Of a stretch of DNA of 64,000 nucleotides, positions 7,816 to 58,103 are shown one piece after another (the first letter of the stretch is position 1; the number at the start of each line of letters is the position of its first letter). The stretch is taken from assembly GCA_965204665.1 (NCBI GenBank), contig OZ242002.1, positions 1,497,995-1,561,994 of the forward strand, read 5' to 3'. The position numbers and the translations under genes are program-made. Origin of the DNA: Thermodesulfobacteriota bacterium. Lineage in GTDB: Bacteria > Desulfobacterota_D > UBA1144 > Nemesobacterales > Nemesobacteraceae. The notes under the pieces were generated by a model. That model ran no database searches. It was not told the origin of the DNA and saw only the letters and a program-made list of their open reading frames with translations.

Positions 7816-9255
7816 TCAGTCTACGAACTCATACTTGTTCTGGCTGATTATATTCCCCGCTCGGTCGTTGTTTGCCGAGCCGCTTACTCGTATCTCAACA
7901 ACTTCAACTGCTCCTACGGAAATCTTGCCGGCAGCGTTGGTCAACGCTCTGGCCCCCGCCGCGAAGCCGCTGAACTGAATCTTGTCGTCCGCCAGTGTGA
8001 AGTCCGTAATGATGTCCACACCGCCGTCGGCTTTTCTGATGAGGAAAGTGTCGTTTCCGGCTCCTCCCGTAAGGTTGTCGGCGCCTTCTTCGCCTATGAG
8101 AACATCATTTCCCGCTCCGCCGTTGAGATTGTCTTCGCCTTTACCGCCTCTGAGGGTGTCGTTTCCTCCCCTACCTTCAAGAGTGTCGCCGGCGTTTCCT
8201 CCTGTGAGAGTATTCGCCTTGCTGTCCCCTTTGAAAGTAACAGATGAAATACGAGGAGCGGACCTGAAACTTGCCAGTACGGCTGAAAGGTTCTCGAAGT
8301 TGGACATATTGGAAGTATGAGTGCTGTCTGTAAGATCGAATTCGTTTCTGTGCCCGGTGCCGTCCACCGTGTAGGTGTTGCCTTGGATGAAATACTGACC
8401 TCCGTACACTATAAGAGTATCGTTGCCTTCACCGCCGTCTGCCGTACCTGCAGAGCCGTTAGCAAATTTAAGAGGAGAGGGTTCGATCGTATCATCTCCC
8501 TTGCCGCCTATCAGAGTATCCGCACCGTACCATCCGATCAGAACGTTGTCCCCGTCGTCTCCCGTGATGTGGTCGTCACCTCTGCTGCCCGCAACATCCT
8601 CGATACTCTCAAATGTATCATTCCCGAATGTGGCGTGCGTGAAGGTTTCTGAACTGAGGTCGAAAGTAACAGCCACCTTCCGCGTGTCACTCGATATATT
8701 CCCGCCGAAAGCAGCAGGGGGACCGGAAAAAAATAACATGTCCCGCCCGAGGCCGCCGTTGAACGTGTCGTCTCCCGGGTCCGTAATGAAGAAGAAATCA
8801 GTTCCCCCGCCGCCGTGGAGTTCATCATTTCCGGCGTCACCATAGATATCCTCGCTCCCGTCACCGCCGTAGAGAGTGTCGGTACCTGCTCCACCCCGAA
8901 TATAGTCATCCCCGCCTTCGCCGTAAACAACATCATCACCGTCTCCGGCTCTGATCTCGTTGGTGTCATCATTTCCGCAGATGACGTCGTCATCTGCGGT
9001 TCCCTGAATTAACCGTACGCCTCTCACCGCATTTATACCGTCACTTCTATCGCATCTGGGATCATCGGTCGGTGCCGGGTCCCCGCCCGGGTCACCTTTG
9101 TCCCCCTTATCTCCTTTCGGTCCCGCCACTCCAGGGTCTCCCTTATCTCCTTTTGCCCCGTCTTTCCCTGCCGGACCCATCTCTCCTTCACAGGCGGCAA
9201 GGAAAACCGCTCCGCCGAGCAGAAACAACATCACTAAGAAATTACGTAATCTCAT
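7816..9255 (-). CDS. Lipoprotein with collagen-like Gly-X-Y repeats and RTX (GGxGxD) calcium-binding beta-roll repeats, paralog 1
   Basis: Signal peptide plus lipobox (LAAC), then GPAGKDGAKGDKGDPG...-type triplets, then many GGAGNDTL / GGxGxD nonapeptide repeats. The C-terminal ~230 aa are about 90% identical to paralog 3. GGAGG RBS. Confidence 0.85.
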   Translation of the reverse strand: MRLRNFLVMLFLLGGAVFLAACEGEMGPAGKDGAKGDKGDPGVAGPKGDKGDKGDPGGDPAPTDDPRCDRSDGINAVRGVRLIQGTADDDVICGNDDTNEIRAGDGDDVVYGEGGDDYIRGGAGTDTLYGGDGSEDIYGDAGNDELHGGGGTDFFFITDPGDDTFNGGLGRDMLFFSGPPAAFGGNISSDTRKVAVTFDLSSETFTHATFGNDTFESIEDVAGSRGDDHITGDDGDNVLIGWYGADTLIGGKGDDTIEPSPLKFANGSAGTADGGEGNDTLIVYGGQYFIQGNTYTVDGTGHRNEFDLTDSTHTSNMSNFENLSAVLASFRSAPRISSVTFKGDSKANTLTGGNAGDTLEGRGGNDTLRGGKGEDNLNGGAGNDVLIGEEGADNLTGGAGNDTFLIRKADGGVDIITDFTLADDKIQFSGFAAGARALTNAAGKISVGAVEVVEIRVSGSANNDRAGNIISQNKYEFVD

Positions 9256-9357: not shown

Positions 9358-9384
9358 ATTTTACCCCCCCCCGATTTGAGTCAA
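9358..9384 (-). promoter_or_regulatory. Sigma70-like promoter with poly-G(9) spacer tract upstream of paralog 1
   Basis: On the minus strand: TTGACT - caaatc + G9 (15 nt spacer) - TAAAAT. It lies about 100 nt upstream of the ATG at 9255. Confidence 0.6.
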
Positions 9385-9736
9385 GCCCTTTTTTCGGCGT
9401 GGAGAATCACATACCTGTAATCCCGCCTGAGTGCTGAGTCGAGAGGGGCTGCAGGCGGACCGGACACCGGCGGGGTCCCCGCAAAGCACTGACGGCGGGG
9501 CTGCAGTTGCGCAGTCTGAAGGATGCTCCGGGCTGGGTGCTTGAGTTCCGCCGGCACTACCCGCTCACACAATACTGACGACAACACGCTTTATGGTGGC
9601 AGACACGCACTCATACATCCTCATTACATGAAGATTGAGCCCGAAAACGTTACGGCGCAACTGGCTCACAGATGATTTTCTTGACAATCCGTCCCGGAAT
9701 ATTTACAATGATACGAAATGGTTTTCATGGAGAGTT

Positions 9737-38223: not shown

Positions 38224-39124
38224 CTATTCTAAGCAATAAAACAATTTTTTCCGTGCACAAGGGATTTGTGCTGTTTTTGGTTCCTGTATCTTATCGCCCG
38301 TCGAACCAGGAGTTTTCAGTTGTTGTCTATTGTACAGATGCAGGCTGTTCTAAATGACAAAATTACGCCGAGCAGATCCTGTTTCCTTGCTGAGGCATTT
38401 TATCCCGAGTCCGAATTACGATCTGGGTGTCCCGAAACCGCTACCAACCGACAGTTATAAAGATTCCATCACGAGAACTGAATATTCTCGGGGCAGACCT
38501 CGACGGTGACGGAAACCGGCGTGCGTTATCAACTGCAGCGGCTGAAGCCTGACCCCAGAGAACATAACGTGGATTTACACACGACTGGAGCAGAGCATAT
38601 ATAATCTCTTCGGCGTTATTGTCGGCGAATGCGGGGGTGAGTCGACATGGGTCAGACGCGTGACGCATTGCGCACACTGATATATACCCCACTGCCGCCG
38701 GTCGGGAGGGAAATATTGGCTGAGCTCAGGGAGAATCTGGACACTCTGAAACTGGACTTCTCAGACCTCAATGCCTCCTGCGACATCAGGGCGCGGGCGT
38801 ATTCGGCGCTGAATACCGAATAACGATGGGATACAGGTTAAAAGCGAAAAAGCCGCCGAGTAAGAAGCCTTTTAACCGCGGGAAATCCTTGGCGACCAAT
38901 CACCGGAGCCTGCTGAAGAAAAAACAACGCGAGACGGCGGACTCAGTCTGCAATCTGGCAATTGAGACTGTGAGAGTATCAAGAGAAAGATCGTTAAAGA
39001 ATAAACCGATTGTCAGGAATACGTCTGTTTTTTTTGAAGGAACAGGTTGAAAATCTTCCGGATCAGGTTCTACACCCCCAAATCCGGTGTCATAATGTTG
39101 AAACAGGAGATTTCTACCCCCGTT

Positions 39125-40615
39125 TCACGCCGTCTGCGGACCGTAAACACTCCTCCCCGCGCAATACTCCCTGAATTTTTCCACACCCGGGATGTTCAAA
39201 ACCCGGGTCAAGTTGTAAGTCAGCGTCATCAGACTGAACTCTCCCCTGCACTTCTCAAGTCCCCGCATAAGAAACTGATGAAAACCGTTTCCGACCTTCA
39301 ATGTTCCGAACAGATGTTCAACAATTCTCCCCCGCTTCCTGATCTTCTCTTCTCCCTGTTCCATTCTCCGCCTGTGCCTCTCAAGCACTTCATGGTGTTC
39401 CCATCTTTGTATCAATCTGACTTGCTTCTCACCGATACAATGCCTGCGCATCGAACACGCCCTGCAGTCCGCACTTCTGCTTGTATATATAGTGTACCTC
39501 TTCCCATTTCTAACCCTTGGTTTTACGCGGGGGTCAGCCTCCTGCCCTGCGGACAATGATAACAATCCTCTCCGGCATCGTAAGTGAATTCGTCAAGACT
39601 GTAACGCCCCCGTTGTTTCATTCTCGAACTGTTGTCGGGAACAGGAACATAGACTGTAATGTCCTCATCCTCGCACCGCTTCAGTTCCATGCTCTCGTAA
39701 TAACCTCCGTCAGCCAGTCCTGTCAATTGTTCCGTATCAAGACTTTTCTTCGCTTCCGTAAGCATCCCGGCCAGTTGATGGTTGTCCGTGCCGTCCTGAA
39801 CCACATTCTCGGCAACTACAAGCTTGTGCTTCGAATCCACCGCTATCTGCGCGTTGTAACCCGCCACGCTCTGCCCCCGCTTCCTGAGCAGCCTCGCGTC
39901 TTTGTCCACCTTTGACACCTGAGTGTCACCACTTCTCTCCATGCGGTCCTTAGTCTCCCGATTCTCCTTCTGACGCTTCTTCAACTTCTCTATCTTCTCC
40001 CTCAACATCTTGTCGTTGCCCGCATCCTGTCTTCCCGCCTTCTCATCAGCGGCGTCAGCCTCCTCAAGTTCCTGCTGATACTCTTCTATCCTGCTCTCTA
40101 TATTCTCCAATTCCCTGTCTATATACCCTCGGGTCCGTATGCTTGCCCTGCTCGCGTCCGCAGAAAAGAAAGAACCGTCGACCGCCACCTCATCCCCGCC
40201 GAACAGGGATAACTCCCTGCACAGCAGAACAAAATCCCTGTTGACCTTCCTCAGTTGCGCCGCATGGTTCTTGCGGAAATCAGCAATGCTCTTGTAAGAC
40301 GGCCGCATCCCTTTCACCAGCCAAATCACTTCGAGATTCCTTCCGGTCTCCGCTTCCAGCTTGCGGCTGCTGCGTATACCATGCTGATATCCGTAAAGAT
40401 GCAAGCTTCAACATCGCCCACGGATTATAGGGAGGCTGCCCCGCTGTGGTGCCGGCCTCGGTATGCCTGAATCCCATGGAAGACAGATCAAGAGTGTCGA
40501 CGTAGGCATCAAGCGCCCGAACCTGGTGGTTCTCTCCGACATAGTCTTCCACTCTCTCGGGCAGAAGCAGTGTTTGTCCTCGGTCAAGTGCGGGTTTGTA
40601 TCGGCGTCGGTTCAT
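39125..40615 (-). pseudogene. IS1182-family (IS5 superfamily) transposase interrupted by two frameshifts
   Basis: Three consecutive ORFs in different frames together give about 497 aa: InsH-N-like (MLKL...YGYQHGIRSSRKLE), a coiled-coil middle, then a DDE/C-terminal YHCPQGRRLT...C..C..C segment. The shifts are near 40390 and 39540. Confidence 0.75.
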
Positions 40616-40756
40616 TGCGTATTACACCTCGGTATCAAGAATATGGAGTAATCGTACCTTAAGAAAGAGGATATATCAACACCTAACTGCATGTAATGCA
40701 AAGATAATTATGCTGTTGTATCAGCCGAGGGGGGGGGGATGAGGAAATCAGATTCT

Positions 40757-40829
40757 GTAAAAACATCTCGGTTCCGAGATATATGCTGAACAATGCAGAA
40801 TCTCAGAATACTTTCACAGTCTCAATTGG
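40757..40829 (+). repeat. Copy of Fic-gene 5' module (promoter + first 11 codons MQNLRILSQSQ), truncated
   Basis: Matches 56469-56538 (+) and 54630-54714 (-). The ORF stops after 17 codons here. Confidence 0.7.
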
Positions 40830-40940: not shown

Positions 40941-42257
40941 TCAGTCCACGAATTTATATAGGGTTGACGTACGGATTGAATTTCCTGTGGCGTCATCCTG
41001 CACATCAAATAAATTGTCTGATCCTATAGTGATCGTGCGACCCGATCCTGTCACCGTAGACCCGTTTGGAAAACCTTTGAACTGAAGTATATCGTTCTGA
41101 GAGGCGTTAAAGTCTTTAATATTATCCTTGTTGCTTCTGTGCGCGTACCTGATTTGAAAGGTGTCGGCACCGGCACCGCCCGTAAGAGTATCGGCACCGG
41201 CTTGTCCGTCGATCAGATCATTTCCGCCTCTTCCGTCAAGGGTATCGTTCCCGGCTAACCCGTCTAAATAATTTCCCAGGTTGTCTCCATTAAGAGTATC
41301 ATTTCCGTGTCCACCGAAAAGGTTCTCAATACCTGTAAATGTAATCGATCCTCCTCCATGACCACCGGCGTCAAAAGTCCCCGCGGCAAGATCAACGGTT
41401 CCAGCTGTATTATTTTGTGCGGAACGGATAAAACCATCCTTCACGGCCTGTATTCCCAGGCGGGGATCATCAGTTTGAATGCTCTCTAGGATTATAGCAT
41501 CACCAGTTTGCCGACCATTCCTGACAGCAGTTCCTATCGGGGGGCCGCCGTTAAAGGTGTCGTTGCCTTTACTGTTGACGAGATAAAATATATCTGCCCC
41601 GTCTCCACCGTTGAGCGTATCATTGCCTTCGCCGCCATGGAGAATGTCCCGCCCCGCATCGCCGTTGACCGTATCATCGCCGTCTACTCCCCGGATGAAA
41701 TCAATGCCGTCTCCGCCATGTAGGGTGTTAGCGCCGGCGTTGGCCCAGATGACATCCTCTCCATCTCCGCCATAGATGACGTCATCGGTAGTTTCCGTGC
41801 CTATGCTGCCTGCAACCTGAGCATCGACTTTGTCATCTCCGTCTTCACCGTATATCGTATCCGTGCCGGCACCACCGGCTATCGTGTCGTTTCCGGCACC
41901 ACCGTAAACAGTATCATCTCCGGCTCCGGCACTGATGTTGTTCACGTACTGATTTCCGCAGATGATGTCGTCATCTCCAGTCCCCGTGATATTATTGGAG
42001 ACACCGGGCAGAGCATTTATACCGTTGCTCACGTCGCATCTGGGGTCACCGAAGGATTTTCCCTGATCTCCCTGCGGGCCCGCCGCTCCCTGTGTTCCCG
42101 AGTCTCCTTTATCACCCTTATCTCCTTTCGCCCCGTCTTTACCTGCCGGACCTGTTTCCCCCTTCGGGCCTGCCGGCCCCATATCCCCTTCACAGGCAGC
42201 AAGGAAAACCGCTCCGCCGAGCAGAAACAACAACACTAAGAAATTACGTGACTTCAT
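40941..42257 (-). CDS. Lipoprotein with collagen-like Gly-X-Y repeats and RTX calcium-binding repeats, paralog 2
   Basis: MKSRNFLVLLFLLGGAVFLAACEGDMGPAGPKGETGPAGKDG... followed by GGAGxDT repeats. It is more diverged than paralogs 1 and 3 but has the same architecture and the same C-terminal YKFVD ending. Confidence 0.85.
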   Translation of the reverse strand: MKSRNFLVLLFLLGGAVFLAACEGDMGPAGPKGETGPAGKDGAKGDKGDKGDSGTQGAAGPQGDQGKSFGDPRCDVSNGINALPGVSNNITGTGDDDIICGNQYVNNISAGAGDDTVYGGAGNDTIAGGAGTDTIYGEDGDDKVDAQVAGSIGTETTDDVIYGGDGEDVIWANAGANTLHGGDGIDFIRGVDGDDTVNGDAGRDILHGGEGNDTLNGGDGADIFYLVNSKGNDTFNGGPPIGTAVRNGRQTGDAIILESIQTDDPRLGIQAVKDGFIRSAQNNTAGTVDLAAGTFDAGGHGGGSITFTGIENLFGGHGNDTLNGDNLGNYLDGLAGNDTLDGRGGNDLIDGQAGADTLTGGAGADTFQIRYAHRSNKDNIKDFNASQNDILQFKGFPNGSTVTGSGRTITIGSDNLFDVQDDATGNSIRTSTLYKFVD

Positions 42258-42285
42258 GACAAAACCTCCTTAAGCAGATGTTTTG

Positions 42286-42313
42286 ATTCTACCCCCCCCC
42301 CATATGAAGTCAA
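42286..42313 (-). promoter_or_regulatory. Sigma70-like promoter with poly-G(10) spacer tract upstream of paralog 2
   Basis: On the minus strand: TTGACT - tcatat + G10 (16 nt spacer) - TAGAAT. GGAGG RBS before the ATG at 42257. Confidence 0.6.
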
Positions 42314-42445
42314 GCACTCTTTCTGAACAGGCGGTTGGTACTGTAGCGATTTCTTGACATTGATTGTTGTTTTTGTTAGAGTTAAAAACGAATTTAGACA
42401 TGGCTAAAATATTTTTTCTGCGTGCCTGAAACAGAGGTTTTTCCA

Positions 42446-43132
42446 ATGGAAATTACTAATGAAAAGACCGGAGTGATCTCCAAAGCGGTAGAGGACTACC
42501 TAAAGACCATTTATGAGGTGCAGAACTCAGAAGATAAGGTGTCTACAAACGCGCTTTCAGAAAAATTGGGCGTATCACCAGCATCTGTTACCGCCATGGT
42601 GAAAAAACTTTCGGATAGAAGGCTCATAACTCATAAACGTTATCAAGGGGTTAGACTCACTTCCGCAGGTGAAAAGATAGCTCTTGAGATAATCAGGCAT
42701 CATCGTCTTGTGGAACTCTATCTCAAAGAAGCCCTCGGCGTTCCGTGGGACAGGGTGCACCAAGAAGCCGAAAAATGGGAGCATGTGCTTTCAGAAGATA
42801 TTGAGGACAGGATTGATGAGTTTTTGGGGCATCCGATTACTGACCCTCACGGCTCTCCGATTCCGCAACGGGACGGAACCATGATAGAGAGGCAGTGTAG
42901 AAGTCTCTTAGATATGGAGTCCAGCACGGATGCCAGGGTGGTGGAGGTAAGCGACCACGATTCTGAATTTCTGCGCTATTTGGGAAAAATAGGACTCTAT
43001 CCGCAGACAAAGATAAGAATTGTTTCCAAAGAGCCTTTTGCCGGTCCGATAATAATTGAGTTCGCCGGAAAAAAATATCCTATAGGACAGAACGCGGCTA
43101 AGTACATATTTGTTGAAAAAACGGAGAGGTAA
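42446..43132 (+). CDS. DtxR/MntR-family metal-dependent transcriptional regulator with C-terminal SH3-like/FeoA domain
   Basis: wHTH (LSEKLGVSPASVTAMVKKL), metal-binding helix, FeoA-like C-terminus. ATG at 42446 is preferred over the GTG at 42422. Confidence 0.85.
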   Translation: MEITNEKTGVISKAVEDYLKTIYEVQNSEDKVSTNALSEKLGVSPASVTAMVKKLSDRRLITHKRYQGVRLTSAGEKIALEIIRHHRLVELYLKEALGVPWDRVHQEAEKWEHVLSEDIEDRIDEFLGHPITDPHGSPIPQRDGTMIERQCRSLLDMESSTDARVVEVSDHDSEFLRYLGKIGLYPQTKIRIVSKEPFAGPIIIEFAGKKYPIGQNAAKYIFVEKTER

Positions 43133-54599: not shown

Positions 54600-54629
54600 A
54601 GATTCCTTTGAAACGGTCGTAATCAGATG

Positions 54630-54714
54630 AGACTGTGAAAATATTCTGAGGTTCTGCATTGTTCAGCGTAGACCTTGGAACCGAGATGTTTTTACAGAAT
54701 CTGATTTGTCCCCA
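54630..54714 (-). repeat. Inverted copy of Fic-gene 5' module (MQNLRIFSQS...), truncated
   Basis: Reverse complement matches 40745-40829 and 56469-56538. Confidence 0.7.
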
Positions 54715-54747: not shown

Positions 54748-54821
54748 TACGAATGTTTTCAGCGGTTGCGGATTCGCTTCCTCAAAATGAGTTGTCAATT
54801 CCTCATCTTGAAACAGAGTGC

Positions 54822-54848
54822 TTGACTTCAGTCGGGGGGGGGTAAAAT
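54822..54848 (+). promoter_or_regulatory. Sigma70-like promoter with poly-G(9) spacer tract upstream of paralog 3
   Basis: TTGACT - tcagtc + G9 (15 nt spacer) - TAAAAT. AAGGAG RBS 8 nt before the ATG at 54907. Confidence 0.6.
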
Positions 54849-54906: not shown

Positions 54907-56334
54907 ATGAGATTACGTAATTTCTTAGTGATGTTGTTTCTGCTCGGCGGCGCGGTTTTCTTTGCTGCCTGTGAAGGGGATATGGGTCCGGCGGGTCCGA
55001 AAGGAGATAAGGGCGACCCGGGAACACCGGGACCGGCAGGACCTCCAGGAGCACAAGGACCGGCGGGACCCTCGGGCGATGTCTCCGGTGATCCCAGATG
55101 CGATGTAGGTAACGGCATAGATTCGACTAAAGGCCAACGGGTGATCCAGGGAACCGATGGTGACGATGTCATCTGCGGGAATAATACCGTCAACGACATT
55201 AAAGCCGGTGATGGTGACGACATTGTCTACGGTGCAGGAGCCGACGATGATATATACGGTGAGAAAGGTGACGACACTCTCTACGGAGAAAACGGACAGG
55301 ACTTTATTCGGGGTGGAGAAGGTAACGATGTTCTCTACGGTAACGGTGAGAACGACGATGTCTATGGCGGCCCCGGAAATGATAAACTCTACGGCGGAGA
55401 AAGAACTGATTTCTTCTTCATCGCGGACCCGGGAGACGATACGTTCGACGGCGGTCCCGGTCCGGATATGTTAATTTTTTCCGGTCCTACTCCTAATAAC
55501 GGCGGTAATATACCGGAAACCACGCGGAATGTGGCTCTTACTTTCGACCTCCGTTCAAAAACCCACACGCACGCCACGTTCGGGACTGATGCATTTGAGA
55601 GTATCGAGGATATTGCGGGCAGTAGAGGTAACGATCATATTACAGGAGACGACGGGGACAATGTTTTACTGGGATGGTACGGTACGGACACTCTGATAGG
55701 CGGCAAGGGAGATGATACGATCGAACCCTCTCCTCTTAAATTTAATAACGGCTTTGCAGGTACAGCAGACGGCGGTGAAGGCAACGATACTCTTGTAGTG
55801 TACGGAGGTATGTATGTAATCCAGGGCAACACCTACACGGTGGACGGCACCGGGCACAGAAACGAATTCGATCTTGAAGACAGCAGTCATACTTCCACTA
55901 TGTCCAACTTCGAGAACCTTTCAGCCGTACTGAGAAGTTTCAGAACTCCTCGTAGTTCATCTGTTACTTTCAAAGGGGACTCCAAGGCTAATATTCTCAC
56001 GGGCGGAAACGCCGCAGACACTCTTGAAGGTAGAGGAGGGAACGATACTCTGATAGGCGGCAAAGGCGCCGACAACCTTACCGGCGGAGCCGGAAACGAC
56101 ACTTTCCTCATCGGAAAAGCCGACGGCGGTGTGGATATCATTAAGGATTTCACATTGGCGGACGACAAGATTCAGTTCAGCGGCTTCGCAGCGGGGGCCA
56201 GAGCGTTGACCAACGCTGCCGGCAAGATTTCCGTAGGAGGAGTTGAAGTTGTTGAGATACAGGTAAGCAACTCGGCAAACAACGAACTAGCGGGGAATAT
56301 CATCAGCCGGAACAAGTATGAGTTCGTAGACTGA
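54907..56334 (+). CDS. Lipoprotein with collagen-like Gly-X-Y repeats and RTX calcium-binding repeats, paralog 3
   Basis: MRLRNFLVMLFLLGGAVFFAACEGDMGPAGPKGDKGDPGTPGPAGPPGAQGPAGPSG..., then GGxGxD repeats. Its C-terminal region is about 90% identical to paralog 1. Confidence 0.85.
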   Translation: MRLRNFLVMLFLLGGAVFFAACEGDMGPAGPKGDKGDPGTPGPAGPPGAQGPAGPSGDVSGDPRCDVGNGIDSTKGQRVIQGTDGDDVICGNNTVNDIKAGDGDDIVYGAGADDDIYGEKGDDTLYGENGQDFIRGGEGNDVLYGNGENDDVYGGPGNDKLYGGERTDFFFIADPGDDTFDGGPGPDMLIFSGPTPNNGGNIPETTRNVALTFDLRSKTHTHATFGTDAFESIEDIAGSRGNDHITGDDGDNVLLGWYGTDTLIGGKGDDTIEPSPLKFNNGFAGTADGGEGNDTLVVYGGMYVIQGNTYTVDGTGHRNEFDLEDSSHTSTMSNFENLSAVLRSFRTPRSSSVTFKGDSKANILTGGNAADTLEGRGGNDTLIGGKGADNLTGGAGNDTFLIGKADGGVDIIKDFTLADDKIQFSGFAAGARALTNAAGKISVGGVEVVEIQVSNSANNELAGNIISRNKYEFVD

Positions 56335-56468: not shown

Positions 56469-56538
56469 GTAAAAACATCTCGTTTCTGAGATCTATGCTG
56501 AACAATGCAGAACCTCAGAATACTTTCACAGTCTCAAA
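56469..56538 (+). repeat. Fic-gene 5' module (promoter + start of ORF), full copy leading into the Fic pseudogene
   Basis: gtaaaaacatctcgtttctgagatctATGctgaacaATGcagaacctcagaatactttcacagtctca. Confidence 0.7.
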
Positions 56539-57508
56539 TCGGGAAAACACAAACTGCGGGACAATCCGCCGGCACTTATGCCAGGCGTATACTCAATCGG
56601 TTGCTGATTGATCTTGCGTGGAATTCCAGTCGTCTGGAAGGGAATACATACTCATTGATCGACACTGGGAGACTGATAGAATTCGGTGAAGAAGCGGCGG
56701 GAAGGAACCATACTGAAACGCAGATGATCCTTAACCACAAGGATGCAATTGAATTTCTGGTCGACTACGCCGACAAAATCGACTTCAACAGACACTCGAT
56801 ATGTAATCTGCATGCATTGCTGTCAAATAACCTGCTGGCGAATCGTGCGGCATCCGGACGCTTGCGTAGTATCGCCGTCGGCATCGGAGAGTCGGCTCTC
56901 CACCACTTGAGATACTGCAACTGATTGAAGAATGCTTTGCGCAGATACTGTCCAAAGCGGCCGGGATCGGGGACCCGTTCGAGCAGGCATTTTCCGTATT
57001 GGTTCACATACCCTATCTGCAGCCTTTCGAAGATGTGAACAAGCGTGTTTCGTGCCTAGCGGCCAACATTCCTCTGATTCGCAATAATTTCGTGCCGTTG
57101 TCTTTCACGGATGTTCCGAAGGATGCTTATACAGAAGCCGCCCTCGGGGTATATGAACTGAATGATGTCGCGTTGCTCAAAGATGTCTTCTTGCGGGCCT
57201 ATGAACGGTCAGCGGCAAAACATATCTCTGTCCAGCGGGCACTGGGAGAACCGGATGTCTTTCGTCTCAAATATCGGACCGAATTGCGTGAGATAATAGC
57301 CGAGTTGATTCGAACTGGAACCGGGCGTGCGCAAGTCACAGCTGAAATCGTACAGTGGGCGGAGAACAGAATCAGGCTTGATGACCGCGATGCGTTCGTG
57401 GAAGTCGTCGAGGAGGAACTCATAGAACTGCATGAAGGAAATTTTGCACGCTACAAGGTGCTGTTATCCGAATATGTTGCATGGAAGGATGTATGGACCG
57501 CGAAGTAA
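56505..57508 (+). pseudogene. Fic/DOC-family protein with degenerate active-site motif and a frameshift
   Basis: N-terminal LIDLAWNSSRLEGNTYSL (Fic_N-like) in frame 0 stops at 56924. Frame 2 is open from 56870 and carries ...DPFEQAFSVLVHIPYLQPFEDVNKR, i.e. HPFx(D/E)GNGR degraded to QPFEDVNKR. Confidence 0.55.
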
Positions 57509-58103
57509 GAAAATCGTTAGAGGTGTGTTTGACGATTGCAAGTAGGTTTCAGGCAATAAACCGAGAAGGTTTAGATTTACCGGAAGTGAAGTAGTGGGGG
57601 GGGGCCGATGCTTGTGTTGAAAAACTCATACCCGCTGAGTATTATTTGAAGAAAGGGAAGGCAATCCCGCAGCATAAGGATGGAGTAAAGGCGATGACGA
57701 TTTGTAAGTACGACATGGAAAGATTACCGCGGTCATCGTGATGCCGATGTGTCGAGTCTTCCTTTCATTTCAAAATGCCCTTTGTTTCAAGACTCGGACT
57801 TTCTGACATGACTTTTCAGGTCAACTATTAGACGGGTCGCGGAAGTCGTTGTTTTTCCAACATTTATTTGCGCTGAACTGTAGGTGCGGGTGGACCGGCA
57901 TATGACAGTCGCTGATGCCCGCTACAGACTTAAGTCCATCCACCCGATAATCATTGCATGATGAAACACCGGGTGCGGTTTCGTCATGAAAATGGTTCAT
58001 CAATTTAGGTTGTATCGGGTCGGAAAGTCTGATATCGGCCTGAGCATTTTTTCAGGAATCGGCTACTATAATCATTTATGACTGAGCGCGGAGGTTTTTA
58101 CGT

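Follow-up and report, generated by a model that had tools for sequence, protein, structure and literature searches.

The window, the whole 64-kb stretch of DNA analysed here, contains three paralogous genes for collagen-RTX lipoproteins, each preceded by a run of guanines lodged between a −35 and a −10 hexamer; the copy ahead of paralog 2 is the element under study (Table 1). The neighbours of paralog 2 are ordinary chromosomal genes, with a DtxR/MntR-type regulator and a metal ABC transporter arranged divergently, and MetH, PckA, AddAB, LigA and Der are encoded elsewhere in the window.

The paralog 2 protein starts with MKSRNFLVLLFLLGGAVFLAAC, in which a basic n-region is followed by a hydrophobic core and then by the lipobox LAAC. 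This lipoprotein signal, read directly from the sequence, runs MKSRN-FLVLLFLLGGAVF-LAAC, and its Cys22 is invariant in 38 family members. Collagen Gly-X-Y repeats occupy residues ~24–67 (about 14 triplets, a run long enough in paralog 2 for a triple helix) and lead into RTX nonapeptide repeats of the GGxGxD type that define an RTX β-roll. Pfam model PF01391 scores 30.5 bits in paralog 2 against a cut-off of 27.2 bits and stays under the cut-off in the other two window paralogs, and PF00353 matches paralog 2 with E = 1.3e-38 over five stretches, the RTX body ending in a conserved C-terminal Y-x-F-V-D. Structurally, the AlphaFold model built from a 38-member alignment is confident (pLDDT 84.8, pTM 0.77): behind a signal helix, the collagen segment shows no order in the monomer and leads into a long β-roll of short strands. 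Its top matches in the PDB are to the RTX domain of the Bordetella adenylate cyclase toxin CyaA (E = 3e-7), with further matches to the RTX modules of serralysins and lipases. The family carries an N-terminal lipoprotein signal, not the combination of an uncleaved C-terminal T1SS signal and a missing N-terminal signal peptide, and no T1SS genes lie beside the three window copies; the product is therefore not a classical T1SS-secreted RTX protein. It is presumably located on the cell surface.

The initial annotation had described, on the minus strand, TTGACT, TCATAT, G10, a TAGAAT −10 box, a GGAGG ribosome-binding site and an ATG at 42257, and had put the spacer at 16 nt against 15 nt in the other two copies. 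Re-reading of the sequence confirms each of these elements, as well as the shorter spacers of the other copies (N6+G9, with the tract at 9364-9372 on the minus strand and at 54834-54842 on the plus strand). A homopolymeric tract of at least about eight nucleotides is thus placed between recognisable −35 and −10 hexamers at 42313..42286. The Shine-Dalgarno sequence is conserved across the family as (A/G)GGAGGTTGTAWTATG, and transcription of paralog 2 would start near 42279. In a promoter scan, 42286-42313 gives 10 of 12 consensus matches; since the scanned region yields 9 promoter-like sites where 3.1 are expected, such a match says little by itself. The composite pattern is far more discriminating: CTTGACT-N6-G9 has three matches in the 64-kb window against 0.00 in 100 shuffles, all three ahead of the paralogs, and windows of at least G8 number 12 against 1.98 expected, a count reached in 0 of 100 shuffles. 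By its sequence, 42286-42313 is a real promoter, a near-identical copy of a module that recurs at multiple loci.

Table 1. Coordinates of the paralog 2 gene, its promoter elements and related features of the window
Feature	Position	Strand	Description
Paralog 2 gene, 438 aa	40941..42257	minus	ORF; lipoprotein signal, collagen stalk and RTX β-roll
−35 hexamer TTGACT	42308..42313	minus	read from sequence and promoter scan; follows conserved C/GAGTGC
Non-G part of spacer, TCATAT	42302..42307	minus	mostly N6 in related copies too
Poly-G tract G10, putative slippage site	42292..42301	minus	−35/−10 spacer of 16 nt
−10 hexamer TAGAAT	42286..42291	minus	read from sequence and promoter scan; followed by conserved CAAAA
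Shine-Dalgarno AGGAGG	42265..42270	minus	7 nt before the ATG at 42257
Paralog 1 promoter C-TTGACT-CAAATC-G9-TAAAAT, spacer 15 nt	9358..9385	minus	ahead of ORF 7816..9255
Paralog 3 promoter C-TTGACT-TCAGTC-G9-TAAAAT, spacer 15 nt	54821..54848	plus	ahead of ORF 54907..56334
CTTGACT-N6-G9 match	9364-9385	minus	pattern search of the window
CTTGACT-N6-G9 match	42293-42314	minus	pattern search of the window
CTTGACT-N6-G9 match	54821-54842	plus	pattern search of the window
IS element	38959..40828	minus (transposase ORFs)	genomic context only; a gap of 113 nt separates it from the stop codon of paralog 2, on the downstream side

The three window proteins are 43-45% identical overall, with the first ~30 residues almost exactly in common. 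Upstream, the window copies resemble one another in just four blocks, made up of GAGTGC-TTGACT, the G tract, TA[A/G]AAT with CAAAA, and the ribosome-binding site. The similarity begins ~10 nt upstream of the −35 hexamer and reaches into the signal peptide, the sequences farther upstream being unrelated. In the three copies, the ATG follows the −10 box at 28, 58 and 102 nt. On this comparison, the similarity within the window is the footprint of a promoter and a ribosome-binding site, not of a duplicated DNA block.

Several other assignments for the element were considered and rejected. An RNA-based control element was dropped: Rfam matches in the window comprise three tRNAs only, and the paralog 2 leader has no significant fold (z = −0.55). 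A canonical G-quadruplex needs four runs of guanines, and the lone uninterrupted G10 cannot form one. A role of the tract for the divergent DtxR/MntR-type regulator gene (42422..43132) is rejected as well, since a separate, canonical TTGACA-17-TAGAGT promoter serves that gene from 42354-42382 and since elsewhere the tract accompanies the lipoprotein gene beside unrelated neighbours.

Protein searches reveal a large family that is restricted to a few assemblies. Window paralogs 1 and 3 have exact matches on a contig of 1,980,752 bp, which assigns the window to that genome. This genome (~1.98 Mb) encodes at least 30 distinct members (29 cluster representatives together with P0121 and P0122). A scan of one genome per species places 49 family loci in OZ220467.1, a Thermodesulfobacteriota MAG of 2,386,527 bp, and a single locus in OZ241855.1, a third MAG of 1.64 Mb, also assigned to Thermodesulfobacteriota. 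The LigA encoded in the window shares 77% identity with its OZ220467.1 counterpart and ~62% with the LigA proteins of MAGs named Candidatus Dadabacteria, a class that NCBI places in Thermodesulfobacteriota. Dadabacteria MAGs are known from sponge metagenomes assembled with metaMDBG (PMC12648040), and the ctgNNN_l names of contigs in the related ENA assemblies are consistent with this pipeline. The single, more distant homolog in OZ241855.1 (L046, 1282-2673, 463 aa) retains the same ribosome-binding site, the N-terminus AGGAGGATTTATTATGAGATTACGTAAT and the collagen and RTX regions, and no poly-G tract is present upstream of it. The tract is therefore not needed for basic expression, and it goes together with expansion of the family.

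The module was traced through 55 parsed promoters from the window, its relatives and independent assemblies. All share the −35 hexamer TTGACT (TTGACA in L182), the tract and a −10 hexamer of the TA[A/G]A[A/C]T type, and differ mainly in the number of guanines, which supports the earlier proposal of a shared poly-G promoter with tract-length drift between copies. In OZ220467.1, a tract of G10-G17 occurs at the same relative position in 48 of 49 loci (48 of the 50 fetched), and 44 of its promoters parse as TTGACT-Nx-Gn-TA[A/G]A[A/C]T. The association is nearly exclusive: the 196 kb of sequence sampled there contain 51 G/C tracts of at least 9 nt, and 50 of these are part of a family promoter. 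The sole sampled long tract outside these promoters is a C15 at L006:998-1012 (OZ220467.1). A separate long tract in the window, the fifth, is a plus-strand G9 at 57596-57604, intergenic, with a 169-aa ORF on one side and a Peptidase_M23 gene on the other; it lacks a surrounding −35/−10 frame and does not resemble the family promoters.

Across the related promoters, tracts range from G9 to G17 and spacers from 15 to 22 nt. The 44 spacers of OZ220467.1 measure 17 nt (1), 18 nt (7), 19 nt (25), 20 nt (8), 21 nt (2) and 22 nt (1), and the five promoters known for the window lineage, namely the three window copies together with L057 and L182 (ERZ26693861), have spacers of 15, 16, 15, 15 and 15 nt. 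The mode is accordingly 19 nt in OZ220467.1 and 15 nt in four of the five window-lineage promoters, with 17 nt found in one promoter. As an N6 prefix with G11 would give a 17-nt spacer, the two lineages lie mostly two steps under and two steps over that length, and the paralog 2 copy, at 16 nt, comes closest to it among the five of its lineage. In OZ220467.1 the total of 19 nt is kept as the split between non-G and G positions shifts (TTA+G16, TTGT+G15, TATGT+G14, TTGTAA+G13, TATGTGA+G12), so the tracts seem to change by point substitution at the 5′ edge together with slippage. The clustering at 15 and 19 nt goes beyond simple drift and could reflect selection for silencing or a non-canonical spacing rule. 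Likewise, the scarcity of 17-nt spacers implies either that nearly all copies are off or that the organism's spacing rule is non-canonical.

Evidence for lability of the tract comes throughout from assembly-consensus sequences. In OZ220467.1, 23 paralog pairs have promoter flanks (106 nt, ungapped) with an identity of at least 90%; 16 of these pairs differ in G number and 13 in spacer length. Paralog 2 and L057 are matched from ~10 nt before the −35 hexamer to about codon 40 except for one A/T change, G10 against G9 and a few coding substitutions; the genes are ~80% identical overall, and their farther-upstream sequences are unrelated. The L057 gene behind its G9 promoter (L057:1676-2864, ERZ26693861, on a contig of 2x coverage) is called as two overlapping ORFs of 127 aa and 287 aa, which points either to a pseudogene with a frameshift or to an assembly error caused by low coverage. 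Between strains, L058 (from the independent assembly ERZ24894574) and L010 (OZ220467.1) share 99.64% identity across 4128 bp with a single indel, G12 against G13 in the tract. This is the one strain comparison of four in which spacer length differs; in the three where it is unchanged, two pairs have a G-to-A change that interrupts the tract while the spacer stays at 19 nt, and one pair is identical. Because the two related assemblies disagree at A/T homopolymers too, single-G differences may in part be consensus error. At the assembly-consensus level, then, tract length differs between copies whose flanks are free of indels.

Insertion sequences occur repeatedly near these genes. The IS element next to paralog 2 has 28-nt terminal inverted repeats (CAATTGAGACTGTG...) and a DDE transposase in three overlapping ORFs. 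It carries a G10 tract of its own at 40729-40738 (C10 on the transposase strand), ~90 nt inside the right end and upstream of a TTGATA-17-TACGAT promoter-like site. Inverted ~80-nt copies of its right end, 91-92% identical, are found at 54628-54707 and 56469-56546, one on each side of paralog 3 and its poly-G promoter. Their outer ends point away from the enclosed DNA, and the passenger is the lipoprotein gene without a transposase. In its sequence layout this arrangement resembles a mobile insertion cassette, and no clear target-site duplication is seen around paralog 3. No IS-end repeats flank paralog 2, and inverted IS-end flanking as a general feature of the family is rejected, few of the 50 loci tested having inverted flanking repeats.

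In OZ220467.1, IS elements also meet the family tract itself, at L004:1372-1401, L019:1377-1402, L045:1378-1401, L048:1388-1414 and L016:3377-3413. One IS type at the tract ends in ...TTAGAAAGCCCTG and has a 319-321-aa ORF, and a second ends in ...CTGAATGGTCCTG and has a 379-aa ORF; L016 shows the opposite junction, TTGACT..G11|CAGGGCTTTCTAA. Judged from these junctions, the family poly-G tract looks like an IS insertion hot spot.

A metagenome scan with CTTGACT-N4-8-G9-N0-9-TARAMT returned unrelated organisms, and none of 80 loci among the matches listed encodes the family. The promoter CTTGACTTTTTTC-G9-TAAAAT recurs there in metagenome contigs, mostly from human gut and of ~55% GC (L064, L066-L068, L075, L077, L086, L088, L092, L096 and L097, among others). 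These promoters, of the form TTGACT-N6-G9..11-TAAAAT and with tract variants of G10 (L096) and G11 (L064), front at least five unrelated small genes, including those for zinc-ribbon and membrane proteins. They are possibly a separate, unrelated set of poly-G spacer promoters.

Comparative sequence evidence makes it probable that 42286-42313 belongs with the phase-variable promoters of porA, tp0126 and vlp and is altered by slipped-strand change of the −35/−10 spacing. This reading is favoured because the anatomy of the element matches that of porA and tp0126 and the organisation of the family matches that of Vlp. In the proposed mechanism, a sigma-70-type promoter would hold a slippage-prone G tract within its spacer, and slipped-strand mispairing during replication would add or remove a G and so change the distance from TTGACT to TAGAAT. 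The altered spacing would in turn raise or lower transcription of the collagen-RTX lipoprotein gene in a heritable yet reversible manner. Tract length would thereby control expression, and switching would occur within the population. The paralog 2 copy (G10, 16 nt), one G under the canonical 17-nt optimum, is probably weakly or partly on; for the other window copies (G9, 15 nt), the prediction is no or very low activity. With a separate tract at every one of the dozens of paralogs, a population would show shifting combinations of lipoproteins.

The regularity of the spacers could instead point to a fixed promoter, in which the G tract is a conserved spacer element that, for instance, binds a regulator or forms a structure, its lengths reflecting slow drift after duplication and not frequent switching. 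Spacer length is indeed strongly modal within each lineage (25 of 44 promoters at 19 nt in one, 4 of 5 at 15 nt in the other), the 19-nt total survives shifts in the N/G split, and the spacer is kept in three of four strain comparisons. Uninterrupted G9-G17 runs are, however, intrinsically unstable and should decay if nothing maintained them, G number differs in 16 of 23 pairs with near-identical flanks that themselves lack indels, no second conserved regulator motif is seen across the two lineages, and the known systems of identical anatomy are switches. A fixed promoter is on this balance unlikely.

It is similarly improbable that the difference between 16 and 15 nt, along with other single-G differences, merely records long-read homopolymer consensus error around a tract that is itself real. 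Related contigs do bear metaMDBG-style names, some at 2x coverage, and the A/T homopolymers that differ between the two related assemblies point the same way. Against this, G9 recurs in four window-lineage promoters with G10 confined to the paralog 2 copy, and the range of tracts spans 8 units (G9-G17), well beyond an error of ±1; such error would moreover bear only on the state of the paralog 2 copy, not on the nature of the element. Very improbable is a third view, in which mobile DNA mainly uses the tract as a target or junction and the tract, having no regulatory role, is carried along with the gene as a by-product. Two IS types do abut the tract precisely, taking the place of the −35 half in L004, L019, L045 and L048, the opposite junction exists in L016, paralog 3 and its promoter sit between inverted IS-end copies, and the window IS has a G10 tract of its own. 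Yet an intact −35/−10 frame without an IS is present in 44 of 48 loci, a preference of IS elements does not explain the position of the tract between two conserved hexamers, and insertion into the tract is better read as an extra way of silencing the gene. The preferred reading thus remains that of a promoter switched by slippage within its spacer.

Comparison with characterised systems places the proposed switch in a recognised class and marks where it departs from each member. At porA, G11, G10 and G9 tracts reportedly give high, medium and no expression, respectively, a result attributed to van der Ende et al. 1995. The likeness to porA lies in a G tract of ~9-11 within a sigma-70 promoter spacer ahead of an outer-surface protein gene; porA, however, is a single pathogen locus encoding a porin, whereas the present element recurs at dozens of loci per genome in an uncultured Thermodesulfobacteriota/Dadabacteria-like organism and would drive an unrelated lipoprotein gene. 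In both T. pallidum tp0126 and N. meningitidis porA, the poly-G lies between the −35 and −10 hexamers with an optimum of 17 nt (PMC7864442, PMC3899988), and at porA a single G gained or lost alters transcription (PMC3899988, PMC7864442). The resemblance to tp0126, an OmpW homolog considered here with the poly-G promoters of tprE/G/J/L, is likewise this placement between −35 and −10. Many poly-G tracts of at least 8 in the small genome of T. pallidum have been shown to vary in length (PMC7864442). Those ~17-20 tracts are associated with heterogeneous genes, whereas here 50 of 51 sampled long tracts belong to one family and one module.

At the level of gene families, M. hyorhinis has a poly-A tract in the promoter of every vlp lipoprotein gene (PMC10502178), and each vlp gene is its own transcription unit, turned on or off by tract indels to yield combinatorial surface variation (PMC10502178). 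The present family shares with Vlp a multigene set of lipoproteins, putatively on the surface here, with a separate promoter tract for each gene. It differs in that the Vlp tract is poly-A and the ~7 vlp genes are clustered, whereas here the tract is poly-G and at least 30-49 genes are dispersed among housekeeping genes; the Vlp proteins are, moreover, repeat-rich products of a wall-less organism, unrelated to collagen-RTX proteins. In scale the family is closer to the mpl (P35) genes of M. penetrans, 38 lipoprotein genes with individual on/off switches (PMC10502178). The mpl switch is promoter inversion by site-specific recombination, whereas tract slippage is proposed here. A further parallel concerns the protein itself. 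Scl2/SclB of S. pyogenes is a surface protein with collagen Gly-X-Y repeats that is phase-variable through a simple-sequence repeat. Its repeat, a CAAAA pentamer, lies in the coding sequence and acts on translation, in contrast to the promoter tract described here, and the protein is LPXTG-anchored in a Gram-positive organism and lacks an RTX domain, in contrast to the RTX lipoprotein of the present family.

The class of mechanism is thus already known from pathogens, and what stands out is the copy number, the near-exclusive tie to one collagen-RTX family and the lineage. No description of such a system was found in the searchable literature on Thermodesulfobacteriota and phase variation or on Dadabacteria and collagen. 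To our knowledge, promoter-tract phase variation has been reported almost solely from cultured animal pathogens and mycoplasmas; here the same anatomy appears in an uncultured Thermodesulfobacteriota/Dadabacteria-like lineage, at dozens of loci and with one surface-protein family. A broader picture can be offered tentatively, with confidence a little short of even. In it, a lineage akin to Dadabacteria, which possibly lives as a sponge symbiont, would have a ~2-Mb genome with ~2-3% of the DNA taken up by collagen-RTX lipoprotein genes. These genes, dispersed and numbering at least 30-49, would each have a poly-G spacer promoter, nearly all of the promoters being set about two slippage steps off the optimum (15 nt in one lineage, 19 nt in the other). 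Such an array would constitute a combinatorial switchboard for the surface coat, on a scale undescribed for promoter-tract phase variation, whose modules may have been spread by IS-end cassettes and silenced by tract-inserting IS elements. If switching takes place, this would be among the largest single-family phase-variable gene sets known. It would also suggest that invertebrate symbionts use stochastic surface variation in the style of pathogens, perhaps against host recognition, phagocytosis or phage.
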